DNA of 64,000 bases from an uncultured cyanobacterium (lineage in GTDB: Bacteria; Cyanobacteriota; Cyanobacteriia; Cyanobacteriales; CAWUOF01): the NCBI GenBank assembly GCA_963744145.1, contig CAVUSO010000001.1:2336001-2400000 (forward strand), read 5' to 3'. The notes beneath the pieces are model-generated. The model was not told where the DNA came from. It worked only from the letters and a program-made list of their open reading frames with translations, and ran no database searches. This document shows, one piece after another, positions 167 through 14,897 of this stretch. Positions within the stretch are counted from its first letter, which is position 1; the number at the start of each line of letters is the position of its first letter. A program made the position numbers and the translations under genes.

Positions 167-469
167 TTATAGTAGTTTCATAGCCAGCACTTGCACAACA
201 GCACTGTGTCCCTGATGAAACAGCCCTTCATGGATTTCTCGCTCAAGTTCTACACTGTGCTTAAATTCTAGTCCTTCTAGTTCCTGCTGAATGGTTGTCA
301 GATCCATCAGCAAATTGGCATTGGGTGGACCTCCAGTTTTGAATTCCAGTTGACGGGGAGTATATGCTTCTAGCACAAACACACCACCCGATCGCAATCC
401 AGAAACCACTTGCCGATGGATACTAGCACGGATAGTTGGTGGTAAATGACAAAAAATCGAGACGATCGC
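167..469 (-). pseudogene. 3' half of an interrupted class I SAM-dependent methyltransferase
   Basis: The frame of ORF 167..409 extends upstream as A-I-V-S-I-F-C-H-L-P-P-T-I-R-A-S-I-H-R-Q-V to 469. This directly continues the N-terminal half at 13539-13828, which ends ...QPNSWD. Confidence 0.9.
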
Positions 470-3400
470 TAATAATTTTTAGTTCTACCGCTAATTAAAT
501 AAGAAGAATTTATCGAAATAGATTAAATTGATTGCCCACTGCATATTAATCAGAATGGTTTCAGTCCCGTTGCCAGGATTCATTATTGAGAAAGCAACTT
601 GACAACCAAGTTGACAAAAACTTTCGCGATAACGTGTTTCAGTCCCGTCGCCGGGATTAAGTATTGAGAAAGTTTTCCTTGAATCAGCAGGGTTTTCTTT
701 ATTGGAGCCATGTTTCAGTCCCGTCGCCGGGATTAAGTATTGAGAAAGCGTAAGTCCCATCGGGTAACATTAGTCCCTCAAGTTTCAGTCCCGTCGCCGG
801 GATTAAGTATTGAGAAAGTAAATATTATCTAAATCTTCCTAAATATTCTTTAGTGTTTCAGTCCCGTCGCCGGGATTAAGTATTGAGAAAGCTGCATCTT
901 TTAATCATGTTTCTAGTCTTTTAGAGTTTCAGTCCCGTCGCCGGGATTAAGTATTGAGAAAGTATCTATATAAACGTAGATGTTATAGTAGGAGATTGTT
1001 TCAGTCCCGTCGCCGGGATTAAGTATTGAGAAAGAAAAAACTAATACATCCAATAGAGCGCCGGCGCAAAGTTTCAGTCCCGTCGCCGGGATTAAGTATT
1101 GAGAAAGCAATGGGAATAAGACAGTCCACACGGTCATGCTAGCTGTTTCAGTCCCGTCGCCGGGATTAAGTATTGAGAAAGCCCCAATAATGGCAATCTC
1201 GCCAATTTGGTTAGTTTCAGTCCCGTTGCCGGGATTAAGTATTGAGAAAGTTGCGGTAGTGAGTGACATACATATCGTTCCAGGTTCTTGTTTCAGTCCC
1301 GTTGCCGGGATTAAGTATTGAGAAAGATCATCATTTTGCAAGTTGCGGTAGTGAGTGACAGTTTCAGTCCCGTTGCCGGGATTAAGTATTGAGAAAGCAA
1401 CCTTCAGCGAAACTTTTAAAACCCCAACCTTTCGGGTTTCAGTCCCGTTGCCGGGATTAAGTATTGAGAAAGGTGTAGCCGGGACTGGGATGGGCTCTGG
1501 CGTTGTGTTTCAGTCCCGTTGCCGGGATTAAGTATTGAGAAAGAGATAATTCCATTTGATTCTCCTTTCTTGGTGAGTTTGTTTCAGTCCCGTTGCCGGG
1601 ATTAAGTATTGAGAAAGAATTGATTTTGCTAAATATTCCAAAGAAACATCAAAGTTTCAGTCCCGTTGCCGGGATTAAGTATTGAGAAAGAGCAGGTAGC
1701 CGATATTCTTATCCCTGCTCTAGAAAAGTTTCAGTCCCGTTGCCGGGATTAAGTATTGAGAAAGCAGCTTTTTTGGGAGAAACTTTAGGGATAGGGATTT
1801 GTTTCAGTCCCGTTGCCGGGATTAAGTATTGAGAAAGTTTCTCTCCCAGAGAAATCGAGATTAAATTGTGTTCAGAGTTTCAGTCCCGTTGCCGGGATTA
1901 AGTATTGAGAAAGTTTGGGACAAATACGTTTCGAGTCTAAATTTGTCTCAGTTTCAGTCCCGTTGCCGGGATTAAGTATTGAGAAAGATTTGCGTATCCC
2001 GCAATAGTTGAAATTGTGCCTGAAGTTGGTTTCAGTCCCGTTGCCGGGATTAAGTATTGAGAAAGTCGATTCGAGATTTCTTAATCTGATAAATAAAATG
2101 TTTCAGTCCCGTTGCCGGGATTAAGTATTGAGAAAGAAGTTGATTTTGAATAGTTCAGTTTAGGAGGTTCAAGTTTCAGTCCCGTTGCCGGGATTAAGTA
2201 TTGAGAAAGCTATGAGAGTCGCATCAAAATCCCAAAAGTCCTATCAACCGTTTCAGTCCCGTTGCCGGGATTAAGTATTGAGAAAGCCCACAGTTTTATA
2301 TAGGTGAACTATCGGAGAAAAGTTTCAGTCCCGTTGCCGGGATTAAGTATTGAGAAAGATATCAGGTTGTCAATCATCCCGGATGATGTAGAAATGAGTT
2401 TCAGTCCCGTTGCCGGGATTAAGTATTGAGAAAGTAGATGAAATATTTGATGAGTCGGATTTCTCCCCCATGTTTCAGTCCCGTTGCCGGGATTAAGTAT
2501 TGAGAAAGAAGTCGGAGCAGCATTAAATTTCAGAGTAGTTTTGGTTTCAGTCCCGTTGCCGGGATTAAGTATTGAGAAAGGAGGATTAAATTATGAATCT
2601 TCCTTCAATGGAAGTCTTGTTTCAGTCCCGTTGCCGGGATTAAGTATTGAGAAAGCCGGGAGTACGCCTTCAGACCAGAGAACCGTCTTTACCCTGTTTC
2701 AGTCCCGTTGCCGGGATTAAGTATTGAGAAAGACCCAAAATAACATTACACAACAGGACAAAACAATGACGTTTCAGTCCCGTTGCCGGGATTAAGTATT
2801 GAGAAAGCTGCCCAATCAGCAATATTGACTATCACTGGTCTGGCGATGTTTCAGTCCCGTTGCCGGGATTAAGTATTGAGAAAGACCTACCTATGAAATT
2901 AGCACCCTTGCGTCGGGTGCGAGTTTCAGTCCCGTTGCCGGGATTAAGTATTGAGAAAGGGGGAAGTTATGTCCGACATCCCAGGGGGTGGCTTAGTTTC
3001 AGTCCCGTTGCCGGGATTAAGTATTGAGAAAGTCCCCTAAAGAAATATTTTCCCCAAAATCGGATAGTTTCAGTCCCGTTGCCGGGATTAAGTATTGAGA
3101 AAGCAGTAAAGCTGTCCAGACTGGACAGTTTTTTCTCGTTTCAGTCCCGTTGCCGGGATTAAGTATTGAGAAAGAAGTCTTGACCGGACAACAACCATGC
3201 TCCTTGATAGTTTCAGTCCCGTTGCCGGGATTAAGTATTGAGAAAGTTGGAGCTGAACTTTAAAGATTGACTTGGCAGTGATTGTTTCAGTCCCGTTGCC
3301 GGGATTAAGTATTGAGAAAGCGGGGGAAACCATCGGGTCAATTTGTGAATGAATGTTTCAGTCCCGTTGCCGGGATTAAGTATTGAGAAAGCGATGAGAT

Positions 3401-5408
3401 TTTCGATGAGTCTGACTTCAGTCCGAGTTTCAGTCCCGTTGCCGGGATTAAGTATTGAGAAAGTCTGCTAATGCCTTGGCTTTTAAAGATTTAATTTCTT
3501 CTGAAGTTTCAGTCCCGTTGCCGGGATTAAGTATTGAGAAAGCAATATTAGCAGACAAAATTTGCCCCGGACAAATGTTTCAGTCCCGTTGCCGGGATTA
3601 AGTATTGAGAAAGGTTTGGTCGTTTTGCTGTTTCTACATACCAACAGGAGTTTCAGTCCCGTTGCCGGGATTAAGTATTGAGAAAGTCCTTGGTTTGCAG
3701 TCCCCATTCCGGTGTCGGTGTTGTTTCAGTCCCGTTGCCGGGATTAAGTATTGAGAAAGCAATCTTGCTCCTCAGAATTTCTTCTGGGATTTTGATGTTT
3801 CAGTCCCGTTGCCGGGATTAAGTATTGAGAAAGCCGTTAGTTGTTGACGCGAATGAATGTTTGGATTATTGTTTCAGTCCCGTTGCCGGGATTAAGTATT
3901 GAGAAAGCTTAGAGTCAAATCCGGCGTGGGAAAATGTGTAGTTTCAGTCCCGTTGCCGGGATTAAGTATTGAGAAAGTGCCATAATGGACAAGGACTTAT
4001 ATAGATAAGTCCCGTTTCAGTCCCGTTGCCGGGATTAAGTATTGAGAAAGCCTCATTAAATAAAAAGGATTTAAAGAACGAGGGTCGTTTCAGTCCCGTT
4101 GCCGGGATTAAGTATTGAGAAAGCAAGGTAATTCCGGAAATTCCTTTACCCCAAGGATGTTTCAGTCCCGTTGCCGGGATTAAGTATTGAGAAAGCAGCA
4201 GGAGCAACAGCTAAGGCAATTTCATCATAATCAATAGTTTCAGTCCCGTTGCCGGGATTAAGTATTGAGAAAGTGGGTATAATTACTGGAATGGCAGTTC
4301 GTGGAATTTTCAGTTTCAGTCCCGTTGCCGGGATTAAGTATTGAGAAAGTATTCTACATATTAAAGTAGAAGAACCTATACCTATACCCATGTTTCAGTC
4401 CCGTTGCCGGGATTAAGTATTGAGAAAGCGGTCAATATTAATCACACGGGAATTACCATCAATAGTTTCAGTCCCGTTGCCGGGATTAAGTATTGAGAAA
4501 GTGTTGCTGATTCAGAATCAGCAAAACGAGGTTCTTTAAGTTTCAGTCCCGTTGCCGGGATTAAGTATTGAGAAAGAATTTTAATCAGCACAATAACCCC
4601 CAAGTAAAAATGTTTCAGTCCCGTTGCCGGGATTAAGTATTGAGAAAGAGGTCAGCAAGGAACTCGATGAGTTCCTGGTGAAGTTGAATGCTTCTTGTTT
4701 CAGTCCCGTTGCCGGGATTAAGTATTGAGAAAGCTCTCTGGCTAGGGATTAGCTATCGAGCATACTTAGGTTTCAGTCCCGTTGCCGGGATTAAGTATTG
4801 AGAAAGTTGTTTTCAAGTCGTCTTTGTTCTTAGAGCCAAAAACTACAGTTTCAGTCCCGTTGCCGGGATTAAGTATTGAGAAAGAACCAGAAAATTTAAC
4901 CCATCAAGAGCGTAATTAATGTTTCAGTCCCGTTGCCGGGATTAAGTATTGAGAAAGGCGACAAATGTTGGGTTAAATATAGCAGCAGGATAAGTTTCAG
5001 TCCCGTTGCCGGGATTAAGTATTGAGAAAGCTGATCTATGGGTGTATATATTAGATTGTTATGGGTTGTTTCAGTCCCGTTGCCGGGATTAAGTATTGAG
5101 AAAGTTGGTTGAGAATGAATTTTTAAAGGAACAAGTACAGAAATGTTTCAGTCCCGTTGCCGGGATTAAGTATTGAGAAAGCGGTGGACATAACAAGCGG
5201 ATGTATTGGCTAAGTCATTGTTTCAGTCCCGTTGCCGGGATTAAGTATTGAGAAAGTCTGTCGAAAAAGACAAGCACTTCGAGAAATCGAAGTTTCAGTC
5301 CCGTTGCCGGGATTAAGTATTGAGAAAGCCTAAAGTTAATATTATAGAAAGAATCTATAAAACATGTTTCAGTCCCGTTGCCGGGATTAAGTATTGAGAA
5401 AGACGATA

Positions 5409-6491
5409 AGTAATTGTACAGAATTATTTACAATAATAACATAATGTGTTAAGGTTGAAGAGTTGAAATTTAAATTTAACTAAAAAAATGATATTTCTAC
5501 GAGAAATTAATCCCCTTTCCGTTAAATTACTAAAGCGAATTTATCATCAAAGCCGACATCACCAGGTGCGTCAAAGAGCTCATTGCCTAATCTTAGCAAA
5601 CGACGGTGTAAAAGTCCCAGAGTTGATGAAAATTTTCAACGTCAGCTCTAAAACAATTTATAATTGGTTTGGGCGATGGGAATCATCTAGTATGGTTGGA
5701 TTATATAATCAATCAGGTAGAGGCTCTAAACCAAAATTTAATTCTGAACAAGAAAACCAAATTAAAGAGTGGACAAAATCCGAACCAAGACAATTAAAAC
5801 AAGTGGTAGAAAAAGCCAAAGAAAAATGGGGAATTGAGGCCAGTACAAAAACAATTAAAAGAATTTTGCAAAAATTTAATATGAGCTGGCATCGGATGCG
5901 TAAAGTGGTAGGAGGAGAACCTGTAGCTACCGTATATCAAGAAAAAAAGCGACAACTAGCAGAATATGAACGATTGGATAAGTTAGGTGAAATTGACCTA
6001 TATTACTTAGATGAATCCGGATTCTCTTTAATTCCTTCTGTGCCATACGCTTGGCAAGATATTGGCGAATATTTTGGGATTCCTAGTCAGCAAAGTAAGC
6101 GTTTAAATGTGTTAGGAATCATGAATAAACGGAATAAATTTGAAGCTTATGTTTCTGAAAAAAGTATCACTGGTGATGTAGTTGCGGCTTGTATTGATAC
6201 TTTCTTTCCTACCGTTGATAAACCCGTGGTAATTGTTACAGATCAAGCATCTATTCATACAGGCAATGCGATTTTTGAAAAACTTGAAGAATGGCAAGAG
6301 CGAAAAATTACTATTTTTGAGTTGCCTACTTATTCTCCCCATCTGAACCTAATTGAAATTTTGTGGAGGTTTATTAAGTATGAATGGATTCCGATAGAAG
6401 CTTATAAAGATTGGCCAACTTTCGTTGCAGCCGTTGAAAAGATTTTGAGAGAATTTGGAGAAAAGTATGTAATTAATTTTGTCTGACTACT
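5409..6491 (+). mobile_element. IS630-family insertion sequence inserted in a CRISPR spacer
   Basis: TA is duplicated at 5407-5408 and 6492-6493. Imperfect terminal inverted repeats: AGTAATTGTACAGAATTATTTACA versus the reverse complement of TGTAATTAATTTTGTCTGACTACT. Removal restores a 37-nt spacer. Confidence 0.92.
5488..6486 (+). CDS. IS630-family transposase (HTH + DDE), apparently intact
   Basis: 332-aa single ORF with N-terminal HTH segments and DDE motifs YYLDESGF, VTDQASIH and YSPHLNLIEILW. Confidence 0.95.
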   Translation: MIFLREINPLSVKLLKRIYHQSRHHQVRQRAHCLILANDGVKVPELMKIFNVSSKTIYNWFGRWESSSMVGLYNQSGRGSKPKFNSEQENQIKEWTKSEPRQLKQVVEKAKEKWGIEASTKTIKRILQKFNMSWHRMRKVVGGEPVATVYQEKKRQLAEYERLDKLGEIDLYYLDESGFSLIPSVPYAWQDIGEYFGIPSQQSKRLNVLGIMNKRNKFEAYVSEKSITGDVVAACIDTFFPTVDKPVVIVTDQASIHTGNAIFEKLEEWQERKITIFELPTYSPHLNLIEILWRFIKYEWIPIEAYKDWPTFVAAVEKILREFGEKYVINFV

Positions 6492-9400
6492 TAATAAGGT
6501 CTCATTATCCTATCTCGTAGGATAGTTTCAGTCCCGTTGCCGGGATTAAGTATTGAGAAAGTACTAATCTAATCTCCAATTCTAATCAATATACACTTAG
6601 TTTCAGTCCCGTTGCCGGGATTAAGTATTGAGAAAGTGGATCATCCAGAGACTGATACTTTTGAGAAAACTCTGAAATGTTTCAGTCCCGTTGCCGGGAT
6701 TAAGTATTGAGAAAGTCGGAGTAAATCCGGAGTATACGCCAATGCTGCTCTAGCAAGGTTTCAGTCCCGTTGCCGGGATTAAGTATTGAGAAAGCGGATT
6801 CCCAATGGCAATTATTGAATAGGTAGCGATCGCATGTTTCAGTCCCGTTGCCGGGATTAAGTATTGAGAAAGTCTGCCATATCAATATCATTTAATTGTT
6901 GATTTAATGCGTTTCAGTCCCGTTGCCGGGATTAAGTATTGAGAAAGCTGACTAAAACAACATAAATTTAATCTGCTGTGAGTTTCAGTCCCGTTGCCGG
7001 GATTAAGTATTGAGAAAGCTTGAATTGTCCGATTATGGCAATTCTTATTATTTGCATGTTTCAGTCCCGTTGCCGGGATTAAGTATTGAGAAAGAGGAAT
7101 TAGATAAGGAATTACGCCAATTACGATCAGGTTTCAGTCCCGTTGCCGGGATTAAGTATTGAGAAAGGTCCTTAATAATTTGGTGAGTGCCCATCAACGA
7201 CCCGGTTTCAGTCCCGTTGCCGGGATTAAGTATTGAGAAAGATACTTAATAAGTTTTTCTTATTAAGTAAAAATGCTTAGGTTTCAGTCCCGTTGCCGGG
7301 ATTAAGTATTGAGAAAGGACCAGACCGAATATTACAAAGTTCGGCAAAACTAGCCCAGGTTTCAGTCCCGTTGCCGGGATTAAGTATTGAGAAAGAAATA
7401 TATTGGCTCAAATTATGGAACTACAGAGAGCATGTTTCAGTCCCGTTGCCGGGATTAAGTATTGAGAAAGCCCAATGGGGGTCATCGACGACAGTTGGGG
7501 CAATCGTTTCAGTCCCGTTGCCGGGATTAAGTATTGAGAAAGAACCTAAGAATTTTAATATCTCTCCTTTTACTTCTTTATAATGTTTCAGTCCCGTTGC
7601 CGGGATTAAGTATTGAGAAAGTGGGGAATCTGACCCCCAACTTTTCCAATAATTTCGTTTCAGTCCCGTTGCCGGGATTAAGTATTGAGAAAGAAGTGAA
7701 CTTTAATACTGCTAACGACCCTAGCGCATTGATTGTTTCAGTCCCGTTGCCGGGATTAAGTATTGAGAAAGCTGGGGTGAATAGGTTTAGGAGCGATTGC
7801 AATCATTTGTTTCAGTCCCGTTGCCGGGATTAAGTATTGAGAAAGTTTATCGCTCTAACTTGGGGCAAAGACAGGAGCAGGTTTCAGTCCCGTTGCCGGG
7901 ATTAAGTATTGAGAAAGCTACCTGTAGATCCAACAAAATTAAATTCTTACCTGTTTCAGTCCCGTTGCCGGGATTAAGTATTGAGAAAGAAATTATGGTC
8001 GAATTATTAACGTTTCAGAATTGGTTTCAGTCCCGTTGCCGGGATTAAGTATTGAGAAAGCTAGCGAGGGGTCAGTAACTTTAGCTAGGGTGATTGGGTT
8101 GTTTCAGTCCCGTTGCCGGGATTAAGTATTGAGAAAAGGACTGCATCATTGGACGCTCTGGGGTCTTTTTGCGTCGTTTCAGTCCCGTTGCCGGGATTAA
8201 GTATTGAGAAAGTAGGTTTTCCTCTTTTACTAGGAGTAGAATTTTTCTTGTTTCAGTCCCGTTGCCGGGATTAAGTATTGAGAAAGTGTAATAAAGTTGG
8301 CCAGATTGATTCCAACCTCTAGTCGCGTTTCAGTCCCGTTGCCGGGATTAAGTATTGAGAAAGTTTAAAGGTAATGCTCGCCCCATCCCCCTCGATTGTT
8401 TCAGTCCCGTTGCCGGGATTAAGTATTGAGAAAGCCACTTGAAATAAAAAAATACCCTCCCATATCAAGTTTCAGTCCCGTTGCCGGGATTAAGTATTGA
8501 GAAAGCTAACGTTAATTCATCATTAGTTTGAGTCGGAATAAGTTTCAGTCCCGTTGCCGGGATTAAGTATTGAGAAAGCAACATTTGATTTATCCACTTA
8601 GGGTATCCCTCCTGGAAGTTTCAGTCCCGTTGCCGGGATTAAGTATTGAGAAAGTTTCTTTTATTTCTCCCTTTGGTTGTAATTTCTGAACCAGGTTTCA
8701 GTCCCGTTGCCGGGATTAAGTATTGAGAAAGGTTTCACTTACGAATTCCTAGAAGGAAATGAAAAAGTTTCAGTCCCGTTGCCGGGATTAAGTATTGAGA
8801 AAGAGCTGAGTTTTTCTTATCCAGCACTTTAGCTTTTAGGTTTCAGTCCCGTTGCCGGGATTAAGTATTGAGAAAGTTGCCAAAATTCTAGATGATCTAA
8901 TCTCATAAAATCAGTTTCAGTCCCGTTGCCGGGATTAAGTATTGAGAAAGTATTTCAAAAATCTCGTTCTGATCAGGGTCTACGTGTTTCAGTCCCGTTG
9001 CCGGGATTAAGTATTGAGAAAGTTTATAGTCCACGGGTTAATTAGACCTATTGGGACTATTGTTTTAAGTTTCAGTCCCGTTGCCGGGATTAAGTATTGA
9101 GAAAGACTTGAGGGGCATTCCCATCACTGTATAAATTTTGCCAGTTTCAGTCCCGTTGCCGGGATTAAGTATTGAGAAAGTTAGCTTGAGCTAAATCAGC
9201 TTGACTGCCTCCACCAGGTTTCAGTCCCGTTGCCGGGATTAAGTATTGAGAAAGTGATGTCGTACTAAATAGTCGTTACATCCCGAAGAAGTTTCAGTCC
9301 CGTTGCCGGGATTAAGTATTGAGAAAGTAGTCCCATCTCCTTGTAAAGAGATTTGAGAGATATTTTGTAAGTTTCAGTCCCGTTGCCGGGATTAAGTATT

Positions 9401-11312
9401 GAGAAAGTTTGGGAAGTGGTCTTTGATGACAAATCTGTCGTCGTTTCAGTCCCGTTGCCGGGATTAAGTATTGAGAAAGTAGAATCATCAATACAACCAC
9501 TAACCGTATAGGGAAGTTTCAGTCCCGTTGCCGGGATTAAGTATTGAGAAAGCCTAGCCAAATAAAACAACAGAGGAAAAACATGAAGATAGTTTCAGTC
9601 CCGTTGCCGGGATTAAGTATTGAGAAAGAAGTACTGTTTATAAATTAGACAACACAAAATTAGTGTAGTTTCAGTCCCGTTGCCGGGATTAAGTATTGAG
9701 AAAGCAGCAGGTGTATCCTGTCCCGAGGATGCTTACGAAGTTTCAGTCCCGTTGCCGGGATTAAGTATTGAGAAAGCTGAGAGCGAGTTCTTTTTGGGCA
9801 TAGTCATCCCAGTAGATTTGTTTCAGTCCCGTTGCCGGGATTAAGTATTGAGAAAGCAATAGGGCTGGGGATAATTTGCTTGAGTGTCCATCCCCTAAGT
9901 TTCAGTCCCGTTGCCGGGATTAAGTATTGAGAAAGCTTTTGCGATCGCAGTAGCTAATCCAGCAGCACGTTTCAGTCCCGTTGCCGGGATTAAGTATTGA
10001 GAAAGTTGCTCCATCAGGAACATTACCCCCTGATTGGTATTATTTCCGGTTTCAGTCCCGTTGCCGGGATTAAGTATTGAGAAAGATAGAAGTTTGACTC
10101 GCAAATTTAGGGGTAAAATAAATGTTTCAGTCCCGTTGCCGGGATTAAGTATTGAGAAAGTTGGAAATAATGTCAATCAATTAATATTATTCAATAAGTT
10201 TCAGTCCCGTTGCCGGGATTAAGTATTGAGAAAGATATTACCAGTACAATCACTGGGGTCCAGGCTACCGCAGGTTTCAGTCCCGTTGCCGGGATTAAGT
10301 ATTGAGAAAGCTGAACTAAGGGCTAGATGGGCGGCAGTGATCGCGGAAAAGTTTCAGTCCCGTTGCCGGGATTAAGTATTGAGAAAGTTCTCAACCAAAG
10401 ATCCTGATACAGGCGCCACCCTGAAGTTTCAGTCCCGTTGCCGGGATTAAGTATTGAGAAAGTTACCAGACTCAGACTTCCGTTGATACTCCTAATACGT
10501 TTCAGTCCCGTTGCCGGGATTAAGTATTGAGAAAGTTGTAAAACTCAACCCATTGGGTATATTGGGCATGTTGATTGCCAAAAGTTTCAGTCCCGTTGCC
10601 GGGATTAAGTATTGAGAAAGAATAAATGAGCTATTCTCGCTAGCCCAATTGCATAGACGTTTCAGTCCCGTTGCCGGGATTAAGTATTGAGAAAGAAGTA
10701 TTTTTATAGTTGACGGTGTAGCCATTTACCGTTTCAGTCCCGTTGCCGGGATTAAGTATTGAGAAAGGAGCTGTAACCCTTACGGCTCTAGCTGACAAAG
10801 ATGGCAAGTTTCAGTCCCGTTGCCGGGATTAAGTATTGAGAAAGTCGCTGATGCTAACTACAGCGGAATCAGTGGACTTAACGTTTCAGTCCCGTTGCCG
10901 GGATTAAGTATTGAGAAAGCTAATGCTTCCCTACCTACCTAATGAGACACTAATACTTCCCGTTTCAGTCCCGTTGCCGGGATTAAGTATTGAGAAAGCG
11001 GCAGCGTCTTTCCGGCGAGATTGCGTTCATTCAATCAATGTTTCAGTCCCGTTGCCGGGATTAAGTATTGAGAAAGCAGTAGTATAATCAAATTAAAATT
11101 ATGTCAATCAACAATGGTTTCAGTCCCGTTGCCGGGATTAAGTATTGAGAAAGTTGCTCTGACGTAGAACCCTTAGTCAATGGATTACAAAAATTTAAGT
11201 TTCAGTCCCGTTGCCGGGATTAAGTATTGAGAAAGCGGGTTATCACTGGACGGCTACGCACCTGATTAATTACAGGTTTCAGTCCCGTTGCCGGGATTAA
11301 GTATTGAGAAAG

Positions 11313-11560
11313 AGCGTGGTCTAGAAGCGTTACTGGGACTAGCTTGAAATAGCAATTTTGGCAGGTCTCCAAAAAAACTTCATTTCAGCGATTGCCCCAA
11401 CTGAAAATTTGCTAGATTTAGACCGGGGTTAGAGCGTAGAACTATTGAATTATCAAGGTTCTAGAGATTTTGGCGGCACCCCCTGGTTTTTCAACCTCGC
11501 TTCGCCTTGCCAAAAAATCTATACAGACACTATATAACACCTTTGCAACTTTGTCACATA
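11313..11560 (-). promoter_or_regulatory. CRISPR leader
   Basis: Non-coding region next to the last, perfectly conserved repeat, at the opposite end from the degenerate repeat. The distal boundary is approximate. Confidence 0.7.
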
Positions 11561-11731
11561 TTTTAGCACTCAAATTTTGCAGAAAAATAATTCAGGTAAT
11601 TTCTTATGGACAATGGCGATCGGATCACCTCTAATCGCTAAATAATACCAGCTTCATAAATTAGCACTACAGATAATATATATAGATCATCTGTAGTCAG
11701 AGTTGGAAGAATTGGTATAACTGGAGAAATA

Positions 11732-11760
11732 TTGACAATAAGTACATATTCGGTCATAAT
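11732..11760 (+). promoter_or_regulatory. Sigma70-type promoter for tnpA
   Basis: TTGACA (11732-11737), a 17-nt spacer, then CATAAT (11755-11760). The tnpA ATG follows 6 nt later. Confidence 0.7.
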
Positions 11761-11766
11761 ATATCT

Positions 11767-12385
11767 ATGACTAAATATGTAACGCCAAATGAAGCAGCTA
11801 ACACTCTCTTGAGTTTGTCTCAGAACCCTTAGAAGATGGGAAGTCGAGGGAAAAATCAATACCGTCAAAACACCCTGTGGTCACAGAAGGTACGACATCG
11901 AAGGGTTCATCAAAAAAGAATCAGCACCAGAAAGTGGACGCGCCACTGTTATCTATGCTCGCGTCTCTACCAGACCTCAACAAGCAGACCTTATGCGACA
12001 AATTGAGCGATTATCAACGCTCTATCCAGGCGCTGAAGTCGTTCAGGAAGTGGGAGGAGGACTTAATCTTAGGCGGAAAGGACTCATCACCCTTTTGGGA
12101 CGAGTTTTGCGTGGCGATATCGCAGTTATTGTGGTTGCCCACAAAGATCGACTCGCCCGATTCGGATTTGATCTTATCGAGTGGTTGTGTGAACAATTTG
12201 ACTGCCAAATCGTGGTTCTCAACCAAGTCAGTCTCTCTCCTCACGCCGAACTCGTTCAAGATATCATCGCAATCCTCCACAGCTTTTCAAGCCGACTTTA
12301 TTCCCTCCGCCGACTTGAAAACCAAATCAAAGAAGAGTTACAAACTGAAACCAAGGCACCAGAAAAACCCGTTAAAACAGCCTAA
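11767..12385 (+). pseudogene. tnpA: IS607-family serine recombinase (TnpA) with a +1 frameshift near codon 15
   Basis: The ATG at 11767 reads MTKYVTPNEAANTL. After a shift near 11805-11811 it continues VCLRTLRRWEVEGKI..TPCGHRRY (MerR-like HTH), then VIYARVST (catalytic Ser motif), VAHKDRLARFGF and ELVQDIIAILHSFSSRLY. Confidence 0.9.
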
Positions 12386-13530
12386 TAAAACTCTGAAAAT
12401 TCGGGTATATCCTGAACCTGCACTGCATCAAAAATGGAAGTCTTGGTTAGCGGCATCTCGTCACTGTTATAACCAAGCGATCGCTGCATTGAAATCAGGT
12501 AAAGAAATAACCAGTGCTTATTCACTGCGGAATTATGTGTTCAGTTTGGACTTACCTGATTGGGTAAAATCTGCCCCAGCACATCCAAAAGAGAATGCAA
12601 TTTTTGATGCTTGGGATGCAAGTAAACAAGCTCAGTCGCAAGGAGGTGAAGCAAGTTTCAGAAATTGTAGACAACCAGTCCAGGCGATTAAGTTTCATCA
12701 AGTTAACTTTAACGGGAAAACTTGGTTTCCTTCTCTGGTTAAAGGACTTAGTTTTCAGGCTAGCGAACCATTACAAAAAACTGAATTTGCGACTCAATTA
12801 GTCAGAGATAGAAAGCGGTGGTTTGCTTGTATTCCCATCCAGGCTGAAATTAATGAACCAAAACAATTAGACCAAGTAATTGCTTTAGATCCGGGGGTAA
12901 GAACTTTTCTAACTGGATATGATGGTGATTCATACTTAGAGTTTGGTAAGGCAGACATTGGACGCATTCAAAGATTGTGTTCTCACCTTGACCAACTCAT
13001 AGGACGCGCCTCGAAATCTGGTCGAAAACAAAAACGTCGGATGTACCAAGCCGCGAATCGTTTACGCATTAGAATTCGCAATTTGGTAGATGAATGTCAT
13101 AAACAAGTTGCTAATTACCTGACAACTCAGTACAAGGTGATTTTTCTGCCTAAGTTTGAAACTTCACAAATGGTAATTAAGTCCGGACGTCCGACTTCAT
13201 ACTAAAACAGCGAGACAGATGCTTACTTGGGCGCATTACCGATTTAAGTGTCATCTCAAACAAGTCGCTCAACAGCGTGGTGTTGTCGTCATTGATGTGA
13301 ATGAATCTTACACCTCAAAAACTTGTACTAGCTGCGGATACCAGCACCACCAATTAGGCGGGTCGAAAACGTTTAAATGCCCCCATTGTGGTCATATTCA
13401 TGATCGCGACTGGGGGGGCGCTCGGAACATTATGATCCGGGCTTTGAGGGACGGCTCCTTTGCTTTGGCGATCACGAGCGAAAGCATTGCTGTCGCGTAT
13501 GCTCTATTTGTCCAGAGTTGTACAGCGTAA
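11877..13530 (+). pseudogene. tnpB: IS607-associated TnpB (RNA-guided nuclease family) with a +1 frameshift at ~13191; true start uncertain
   Basis: Motifs include KTLKIRVYP, RuvC-I IALDPGVRTF, VNESYTSKTCTSCG and CPHCG (Zn finger), and DRDWGGARNI. ORFs 11877..13205 and 13219..13530 join if one C is removed (SGR-RLHTKTARQMLTWAHYRF). Confidence 0.9.
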
Positions 13531-13538
13531 TACCGTCA

Positions 13539-13828
13539 GCATCCCAAGAATTGGGTTGAATGACAAATTCAGCCAGATCTGCCACAATCGTTTCTATCTC
13601 CACAGAACGCTCTGCTGCTAGTTTGCGAGCTTTCTCCAAGCCTATAGAAGAACCATCGACAGCCGTAACCTGACATCCTTGCTGTGCTAGATATACAGCA
13701 TTCCTACCTTCTCCTTCGGCTAGAGAAAGAACATGACCTTTGGGAATCTGTTGGATGACTTGGACTAAAAAGTCGTTGGGATGCTTACCATAGGCATACT
13801 CAGTCTGGCTATATCGTTCATTCCACAT
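13539..13828 (-). pseudogene. 5' half of the interrupted class I SAM-dependent methyltransferase
   Basis: MWNERYSQTEYAYG..VLSLAEGEGRNAVYLA..VTAVD covers SAM-binding motifs I/II. The plausible reading stops at ...PNSWDA, and the remainder of ORF 13472..13828 is read from the transposon end. Confidence 0.92.
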
Positions 13829-13892
13829 AATTTACTAAAACGCTGTATTGTTATAACAAATGATTAGGAATACGGTAAAATTTTTACCCGAC

Positions 13893-14897
13893 CTAAATAT
13901 CTTCAACGACTTTGCCTCGGAACACTACATAGTTGTAGATGTTGTAGAACAACATAATGGGAATCAGAAAGCCAATAAAGATGAGCATAAATACTAACGC
14001 ACTAGGAGAGGCTGCGGCTTGATAGATGGTGATTTGGGTGGGGATGATGTAAGGAAAGACGATCAGTCCTAATCCAATAAAGGTAAGCAAGAAGATCAGA
14101 ATCGTCCAGATCAATGGTGTGTTTTCCTCCTCCCGGTTGAGACTTGTCCACAGCAGCCACACCAGTACCACACCCAACACCGGAATCATGGCAAAGATAT
14201 AAATTAAAGGCTGGCTAAATAACCGAGTTCGCGCTGCTTCATAGACGATCGGAGTAGCGATCGTGATTAAAGTCGCACCAATAAAGGTGGTGATAGTGGC
14301 AATTTTAGCGGTGCGAAAGTGGGTTTTTTGCAATTCTCCGTCAGTTTTCAAAATTAGGTAGGTAGAACCAATTAAGACATAGCCCTGGATTAAAGTCAGT
14401 GCTACTAATAGCGATCGCCAGTCCAACCAATCCCAGGTGGAGCCAATAAAGTGACCTGTCTGATCCACCGCGATCCCTTCAATTACACTACCAAGAGCAA
14501 AACCCTGTCCTAGGGCAGCAATAAAACTACCAATTCCAAAAGCAAAATTCCACAGCAACTTGCGATCGGAATGTTCTCGAAATTCAAAGGCGACTGCTCG
14601 AAAAATCAGCCCAAAAATCATGAGGAAAATCGGAATATACAAGGCACTGAGGATGGTGCTATAAGCCAAGGGAAATGCTCCAAATAAGGCTCCTCCCATT
14701 AGCACTAACCAAGTTTCGTTAGCATCCCAAATATTACCCAAACTGGTCATCAAAATAGTGCGGCGTTTTTCGTCTGAACTGGTCAGAGACAGGATGCCAA
14801 CTCCCAGGTCAAAACCATCGAGCATGACATACAGAAATAGGAATAACGCCAAAATTACAAACCAAACTTGAGGCAAAAAATGTAGTAGTGCGTCCAT
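13893..14897 (-). CDS. cydB: Cytochrome bd ubiquinol oxidase subunit II
   Basis: Motifs YVMLDGFDLGVG and WDANETWLV; multi-TM protein following cydA. Confidence 0.95.
   Translation of the reverse strand: MDALLHFLPQVWFVILALFLFLYVMLDGFDLGVGILSLTSSDEKRRTILMTSLGNIWDANETWLVLMGGALFGAFPLAYSTILSALYIPIFLMIFGLIFRAVAFEFREHSDRKLLWNFAFGIGSFIAALGQGFALGSVIEGIAVDQTGHFIGSTWDWLDWRSLLVALTLIQGYVLIGSTYLILKTDGELQKTHFRTAKIATITTFIGATLITIATPIVYEAARTRLFSQPLIYIFAMIPVLGVVLVWLLWTSLNREEENTPLIWTILIFLLTFIGLGLIVFPYIIPTQITIYQAAASPSALVFMLIFIGFLIPIMLFYNIYNYVVFRGKVVEDI

Follow-up and report, generated by a model that had tools for sequence, protein, structure and literature searches.

Background

How does an array of clustered regularly interspaced short palindromic repeats (CRISPR) without cas genes come to lie in the middle of another gene? 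The question is raised by a stretch of 64,000 nucleotides from an uncultured cyanobacterium of the order Cyanobacteriales (positions 2,336,001 to 2,400,000 of GenBank contig CAVUSO010000001.1; hereafter the window, to which positions refer unless prefixed with C1), situated in the 7.63-Mb contig (C1) of a 7.7-Mb, 4-contig genome. Here the two halves of a gene for an S-adenosylmethionine (SAM) methyltransferase are separated by a block (470-13538) that contains a large CRISPR array and, at its right-hand edge, the transposase gene tnpA and the accessory gene tnpB of an insertion sequence (IS) of the IS607 family. A preliminary description, made from the sequence alone, proposed that the serine recombinase TnpA had moved the array into the methyltransferase gene as cargo. 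Our analyses, which are likewise computational, establish the insertion itself and point to IS607-type recombination at its borders, and they lead us to a tentative account of how the array was moved.

Results

The two halves of the methyltransferase gene fit together without any residue lost or doubled. Aligned with the two best full-length orthologues (68% and 64% identity) from a search of 41 relatives, in which 26 genomes gave matches, they abut at columns 100/101, and joining them in silico around a single GC produces an open frame of 591 nt, or 196 aa, that has 0 internal stops and reads TGG GAT GCG ATC GTC across the join; with two GCs, or with none, the frame is lost. An occupied gene of this kind should have an unoccupied counterpart among relatives, as the preliminary description anticipated, and one was recovered by scanning metagenome contigs with the N-terminal half of the methyltransferase (484 relatives, 80 kept). 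The locus in question, L046, matches that half at 82% aa, and its gene order comprises cydB (90% aa), an uninterrupted methyltransferase of 195 aa, and the same downstream regulator of 914 aa (82% aa). In a DNA alignment the right flank of the block extends to position 2823 of this locus and the left flank begins at 2822, an overlap of 2 nt (GC), and the empty site, TGGGATGCGATCGTCTCG, is identical to the in-silico join. Given that the flanks are contiguous in L046 apart from this overlap, the block is a pure insertion of 13,069 bp, with GC on each side. Extra or missing residues relative to homologues, which had been named in advance as evidence to the contrary, are not seen. The C-terminal 100 aa yielded no match of their own in a Pfam search.

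Confirmation of both junctions by reads had also been called for, and support was obtained for the right junction, which is spanned by an independent Logan contig of a public run (13267-14200). There is no repeat at 469/470 or at 13538/13539. Logan contigs also leave 11313-11797 and 12089-12282 uncovered, a gap that is neutral for the question considered here.

BLAST detects no second copy of the window's IS607 in its own genome, where the other IS607-type TnpA genes are just 41-46% identical, and the suggestion that other copies in the genome would define the ends of the element could not be followed in that form. Sister copies in other genomes supplied both the ends and the core instead. When 401 genomes of the order were searched with the DNA sequence, 117 gave matches, with copies of ~78% identity, and a protein-seeded scan of genome contigs produced 29 loci; the sister elements measure 1,831-1,841 bp. 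All 24 visible right flanks consist of ACCGTCA and G, followed by C (21) or G (3), and all 15 visible left flanks consist of CGATCG, followed by G (12) or C (3), 4-5 variable bases and CCTCTAAT. Four empty sites in sister species reveal the conversion of CCGATCGCATCC into CCGATC[GG]-IS-[GC]ATCC, and one further empty site that of GCGAGCGGATAT into GCGATC[GG]-IS-[GG]ATAT (brackets enclose the crossover dinucleotides). Because the empty sites already carry CGATCG, this hexamer belongs to the target DNA; it forms the core of HIP1, a palindrome of cyanobacteria. Consequently, the notion that IS607 elements have little target specificity, which the preliminary description had taken over, does not hold for these copies.

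Comparison of empty and occupied sites demonstrates exchange over a 2-bp core, without longer target duplication, in two sister copies and in the 13-kb block. On the plus strand the empty methyltransferase site reads GACGATC[GC]ATCCCA, and thus includes a CGATCG half-site; it has the 11-mer CGATCGCATCC (42 occurrences in 7.7 Mb) in common with one proven target of a sister copy. CGATCG precedes 0.19% of positions in the genome, and copies of HIP1 number 7,852, or about 1 per kb. The right junction of the block, ACCGTCA[GC]ATCC, is the product expected of a canonical insertion, and at the left junction, GACGATC[GC]TAATAAT, the canonical cut position is followed by DNA that is not part of the IS. 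Both junctions carry what reads as the signature of an IS607-type transposase, and we infer that TnpA was their maker. The sister copies cross over at G[C/G] and stop at the position equivalent to 13538, such that neither a deviating core nor a deviating end, either of which had been listed as grounds for doubt, was encountered, and the right boundary of the block coincides with the right end of IS607.

Across the sister loci (L125-L149) the crossover is asymmetric, with GG on the side of the left end and GC on that of the right end, and the reverse pairing is never seen; all 7 copies in Heteroscytonema crispum UTEX LB 1556 for which both flanks can be read show this pattern. Such a bias is not what an identical 2-bp core would lead one to expect. 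A potential explanation is that the core of the element is GG and that of HIP1 is GC, and that the first base alone must pair: the strand with the mismatched 3' end would then stay unligated and be repaired from the other strand, each junction inheriting the core of its right-hand partner. The three cores of the window (GC, GG and GC, from left to right) fit such a rule.

The window's IS607 possesses the diagnostic features of its family. In TnpA a helix-turn-helix (HTH) segment, ...LRTLRRWEVEGKI, is encoded ahead of the catalytic Resolvase domain (E 8e-11) within the same gene, and tnpB is located downstream of tnpA (Cas12f1-like TNB, 76.6 bits; HTH_OrfB_IS605, 21.5 bits; OrfB_IS605, 23 bits, which is under its cut-off). 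Terminal inverted repeats are absent, and subterminal direct motifs occur at both ends, TGGAGAA and TTGACAA at the left (11722-11738) and, on the other strand, TGGACAA and TGTACAA at the right (13508-13524). The two motifs of each pair are 10 bp apart, and the layout is shared by the sister copies. The left end starts with ATCACCTCTAATC and is preceded by GGCGATC[GG]; the right end closes with ACCGTCA, and the stop codon of tnpB sits 8 bp short of it. As the left end lies at 11624, the array (558-11312) is beyond it, and the earlier depiction of the array as a passenger inside the IS has to be given up. The left end is split by a palindromic miniature inverted-repeat transposable element (MITE) with ends TACCA...TGGTA, which is dispersed across the genome in dozens of copies that are 70-88% identical. 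An Rfam scan of 11300-14000, with E up to 0.1, returned no match, and hence no described guide-RNA family.

In the assembly both IS607 genes are frameshifted. Relative to the sister copies, tnpA is longer by a single base near 11803-11809, a +1 frameshift at a spot outside contig cover, and tnpB is shifted at ~13190, where a contig from run X1 (depth ~5, possibly from the same sample) is without one base; once base 13190 is dropped, tnpB is open for 400 aa, and its frameshift is probably an assembly error. Since the X1 contig lacks this base, the assembly contains indel errors, and neither frameshift counts as proven. Further single-base errors in this genome are likely. The tnpB frame has no evident ATG, GTG or TTG start at 12285-12420, just after tnpA.

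The contents of the block are otherwise as first described, namely an array with its leader, a nested IS630 element, and IS607 tnpA and tnpB; the open reading frame (ORF) list and a domain search of 470-13538 show IS630, tnpA and tnpB as the only ORFs, with no cas gene among them. The last repeat of the array (558-594) is degenerate and the following 8 repeats carry a T>C variant, which places the leader at the opposite end, at 11313-11614; on the minus strand the repeat finishes with ...GGGACTGAAAC. On the trailer side, bases 499-556 have a single paralogue of 58-75 bp (76-82%) in an unrelated intergenic region (C1:441794-441868), and the genes neighbouring it at C1:441.8 kb have no link to cas or to an IS.

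Two further arrays in the genome have repeats that differ by 1-2 nt, bringing the total for the three to 505 repeats. One (C1:860258-877175) has 212 repeats in a neighbourhood without cas genes, and the other (C1:4811439-4823631) has 163 repeats directly after genes for Cas3-like, Csc2, Cas6, Cas4 and Cas1 proteins, a type I-D operon. The window's repeat differs by 2 nt from that of the I-D array at C1:4.81 Mb, and its leader shares 89% identity with that of the array at C1:860 kb (over 303 nt) and 87% with that of the I-D array (over 217 nt); by sequence, therefore, repeat and leader match those of a cas-flanked type I-D array. Two long 'spacers' in the array at C1:860 kb were considered as possible IS607-type elements and rejected as such. 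Six spacers of the window's array overlap spacers of the other two, all on the opposite strand: five of the overlaps are with the I-D array, over 32 nt in two cases (at 97% and 100%), 22 nt in one and 17 nt in two, and four of these five pairs keep the same order along both arrays; the sixth, of 17 nt, is with the array at C1:860 kb. This pattern suggests that the window's array and the I-D array took spacers from common invaders within one lineage, and use of the window's array in trans would follow from it. The array retains its leader, and the type I-D cas operon, at a distance of 2.46 Mb, probably serves it in trans. A search for the exact 37-nt repeat in the genome-contig collection gave 0 matches, and neither a relative carrying the array nor its ancestral locus was found.

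Coordinates of all features are collected in Table 1.

Table 1 Features of the insertion locus, in window coordinates
Feature	Position	Strand	Remarks
SAM-methyltransferase, C-terminal half	167..469 (codons 469..170)	-	100 aa and stop; from orthologue alignment column 101
Left GC crossover dinucleotide	468..469		End of HIP1-like target half-site GACGATCGC (461-469)
Trailer-side non-repeat flank of array	470..557		88 bp
CRISPR array	558..11312	-	130 repeats, 37 nt each
Candidate surrogate left end: two direct TTGACAA, 12 bp apart	599..617	+	In oldest spacer; orientation and form of IS607 left-end motifs
Nested IS630-family element (DDE_3)	5403..6524 (ORF 5488-6486)	+	Inside a 1,122-nt 'spacer'
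CRISPR leader and upstream region	11313..11614	-	~300 bp; leader matches those of two other arrays
HIP1-like target half-site GGCGATCGG	11615..11623		GG core at 11622-11623, just before IS607 left end
IS607-family element	11624..13538	+	1,915 bp; ~1,836 bp without MITE
Palindromic MITE	~11643..11721		~79 bp; inside IS607 left end, between terminus and TnpA-type motifs (11722-11738)
tnpA	11767..12385	+	MerR-like HTH, then serine-recombinase (Resolvase) domain
tnpB	12390..13530	+	OrfB_IS605 and Cas12f1-like TNB domains
Right GC crossover dinucleotide	13539..13540		From flank alignment and sister-copy ends
SAM-methyltransferase, N-terminal half	13539..13828	-	96 aa; Methyltransf_25 and TehB matches
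cydB	13893..14897	-	Upstream neighbour of methyltransferase gene; synteny kept

Elements related to the IS607 by their ends occur elsewhere in the genome. Five elements of ~1.56 kb (C1 98328, 3812954 and 7021839 on the plus strand; 5666122 and 4139940 on the minus strand) encode a 430-aa HNH/RuvC protein that is IscB-like by reading of its sequence, and derivatives of ~470 bp lie at C1 3192630, 3491396 and 5858529 (plus) and at 6261464 and 2284092 (minus). The first 15 bases of the IscB-like elements are those of the IS607 left end, TGGACA-type motifs are present at both of their ends, and they have no transposase gene. The window's tnpA is the only tnpA of the genome whose element has ends matching theirs, and this IS607 may have served as their helper. 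A solo IS607-type left end of 65 bp is found upstream of fbp (C1:1873856, minus strand; locus L044), where it truncates what appears from the translation to be an NlpC/P60-type gene. The host sequence ahead of it, ACCGTCAG, is the same as the IS607 right terminus. A head-to-tail joint of right end and left end was considered for this site and rejected, given that ACCGTCAG reads as coding sequence of the NlpC/P60-type gene; the identity suggests that targets mimic the IS607 right end.

Discussion

Any explanation of the locus must account for an array that lies outside the IS and nevertheless shares its insertion. Inversion or deletion between two IS copies was rejected, given that neither brings the left half of the gene into contact with the array's trailer flank; since these two must meet, insertion through a circle is needed. 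We tentatively conclude that the block was inserted in one step by the serine-recombinase chemistry of an IS607-type TnpA, with the CRISPR array as cargo. The recombination chemistry and the role of the IS607 right end are well supported, and the one-step move of the cargo is likely but unproven. Under the proposed route, the IS607 would have resided at a HIP1-like site, GGCGATC[GG], directly preceding the leader of an array without cas genes; TnpA would have paired the right end not with the element's own left end, split by the MITE, but with a surrogate left end past the far side of the array; and a circle comprising 470-13538 would have been released and would then have inserted into the methyltransferase site. 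A pair of direct TTGACAA motifs at 599-617, 129 bp inward of the left junction, would have served to nucleate the surrogate end. TTGACAA is also the second motif of the element's own left end (11732-11738), and with 341 such pairs in C1, counting both strands, 200 nt of one strand would be expected to contain 0.0045 of them. If the MITE has disabled the native left end, recourse to a surrogate would be favoured. The preliminary description had left a choice between a cryptic site beyond the array and integration of an array-bearing circle at the IS left end; the motif pair lends support to the former, and the latter persists among the rivals weighed below.

Several properties of IS607 transposition are compatible with such a route. 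According to excerpts of Chen et al. 2018 (PMC6188088), TnpA exchanges strands over 2 bp without longer duplication and is directed by subterminal direct motifs that are possibly >60 bp from the end; identity within the terminal 19 bp barely affects the pairing of ends, the protein filament extending without sequence preference, and an IS607 loaded with a tet cargo was able to transpose.

There are nonetheless points that weigh against a one-step move. The motif pair was found post hoc (its corrected chance is put at ~0.02), and it sits 129 bp from the crossover, as compared to ~19 bp in native left ends, with a spacing of 12 rather than 10 bp. A position weight matrix that represents the whole left end, derived from those of six sister copies, scored at best -24.3 in a scan of 440-560, which is around the 99th percentile and not significant. 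No CRISPR array was found within ±10 kb of the sister IS607 at any of the 29 loci (0/29) with a crude detector that does find the window's array as positive control, from which it follows that this would be a single event and no habit of the family. Furthermore, neither a donor site nor a circle nor another case of this kind is known, support from independent contigs concerns the right junction, and with tnpA frameshifted in the assembly the present activity of the element is not demonstrable. The array may also have been shorter at the time of the move, and have grown later.

The surrogate-end route is one of three that fit all the cores (GC, GG, GC). Another is that a second element with like ends (an IS607, an IscB element or a MITE) once flanked the array on the trailer side, that TnpA moved this left element, the array and the IS607 as a unit, in the manner of a composite transposon, and that the partner was later excised precisely to leave GACGATC[GC]TAATAAT. 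Each step of this history would be a canonical IS607 reaction, excision by serine transposases being scarless (PMC6188088, in the excerpts cited above); 12 further sites in the genome, mostly the IscB-like elements and their ~470-bp derivatives, begin with the left-end sequence ATCACCTCTAATCGC, and the MITE in the left end would account for the right-hand IS607 having been left behind. However, the two bracketing copies of a composite transposon are not found, the IS607 being single-copy and 470-560 bearing no likeness to a left end, nor is there any trace of a second element at 470; the TTGACAA pair becomes a coincidence (expected 0.0045), and one event more is required than with a surrogate end. 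We regard this history as unlikely. The third route supposes two arrivals, in which the IS607 alone entered the methyltransferase gene and was followed by an array-only circle of 11.15 kb with a reconstituted HIP1-like site (GGCGATCG|CTAATAAT), integrated by TnpA-type exchange at the junction of gene and IS607 left end. It gains from the presence of CGATCG on both sides of the array segment (461-469 and 11615-11623), and the cores are those expected of exchange at the left-end junction. Yet such a circle would have neither an element end nor a replication function, the motif pair is left unexplained, and a left-end junction would have to recombine with a bare target, a reaction that the excerpts of PMC6188088 do not describe. 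Two arrivals strike us as distinctly improbable.

The involvement of a transposase at the left junction can also be questioned, if the IS607 inserted normally and the array was placed beside it later by illegitimate or short-homology recombination at CGATCG. The abundance of HIP1 (7,852 copies) offers ample opportunity, and CGATCG forms a direct repeat of 6-7 bp on either side of the array segment. A homology of 7 bp is, however, far under what homologous recombination uses, the join is exact to the base at the same G|C position as in proven insertions of the family, and a circular intermediate would still be required, all of which leaves this possibility very doubtful. Lastly, the gene halves could have been falsely joined to the array and the IS607 during assembly. 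The stretch contains at least one probable single-base error (13190), but no false join can interrupt a gene at a single dinucleotide such that the 196-aa frame is restored and matches a relative's site, the junctions are without repeats and the right one is spanned independently; we attach practically no credence to an artefact.

Comparison with known systems helps to place the surrogate-end reading. In one-ended transposition of the ISEcp1 and IS91 types, one IS end and a distant second boundary move adjacent DNA, by means of DDE or HUH transposases and with target duplications or read-through past an end. The block resembles them in that DNA beside an IS would have been moved between one IS end and a distant boundary, and departs from them, and from composite transposons, in that serine recombination would have acted through a circle, scarless but for the 2-bp core, and with a single IS copy. 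TnpX of Tn4451 and TndX of Tn5397 are serine recombinases that excise multi-kb cargo as circles and insert it at a 2-bp core; they have a large C-terminal domain, whereas the window's TnpA is small with an N-terminal HTH, and their transposons have defined ends on both sides and resistance genes as cargo, where here the cargo is a CRISPR array. Cyanobacterial Tn7-like CRISPR-associated transposons (e.g. ShCAST) encode tnsB, tnsC, tniQ and a Cas effector and carry a short targeting array. A CRISPR array inside a mobile unit, in filamentous cyanobacteria, is what they have in common with the block; unlike them the block, whose ORFs are IS630, tnpA and tnpB, has no Tn7 machinery and no cas gene, and its 130-repeat, defence-type, I-D-like array is a passenger only. 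Orphan CRISPR arrays served in trans are similar in that the insert has no cas genes and its repeat and leader closely resemble those of the I-D array, but the origin of their position is usually unknown, whereas here the junctions record the event.

Within the IS607 family itself (IS607 of Helicobacter pylori, IS1535 and ISC1926), the excerpts of Chen et al. 2018 (PMC6188088) describe an N-terminal-HTH serine-recombinase TnpA followed by tnpB, no terminal inverted repeats, subterminal direct motifs, a 2-bp G-containing core and a length of ~1.8 kb, in all of which the window's element is alike. What sets it apart is a moved unit of 13 kb, which has its left boundary elsewhere than at the IS left end and its cargo beyond the IS. 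The cyanobacterial subfamily inserts at CGATCG[C/G], where IS607 is reported in the same excerpts to need (G)GG alone, and, as a further difference, its usual cores are GG next to the left end and GC next to the right end.

A search of the literature, supplements excepted, turned up no paper in which an IS607 has a CRISPR array for its cargo or HIP1 for its target. Those that combine IS607, CRISPR arrays and serine recombinases (including PMC6563490) do not describe the arrangement in the window, as far as the excerpted texts go, and HIP1 appears in print as an insertion site only for the small repeat SDR5 (PMC5861425, likewise in excerpt).

Conclusions

A wider possibility, which we consider unlikely as matters stand, is that an IS607/TnpB element can act as the vehicle of a whole CRISPR memory, by way of a chance motif pair in a spacer that acts as surrogate end, a HIP1-like landing and fixation driven by TnpB. 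If this were true, TnpA could pick up an adjacent cas-less array and drop it at any of thousands of HIP1-like sites. The guide of TnpB would be read from the DNA just past the right end, in this case the methyltransferase gene, and TnpB would cut the array-free copies of the polyploid chromosome; repair would then copy the 13-kb block, fixing the relocated array.

Cas-less arrays are common, and the origin of their position can rarely be traced. Here the junctions, a relative's empty site and the rules of the IS family would together record the relocation of ~11 kb of spacers, independently of cas genes, by the chemistry of a serine transposon. Furthermore, one cyanobacterial subfamily gains a specific, HIP1-like landing sequence within an IS607 family regarded as 'target-indifferent', and HIP1 gains a concrete interaction with a mobile element.

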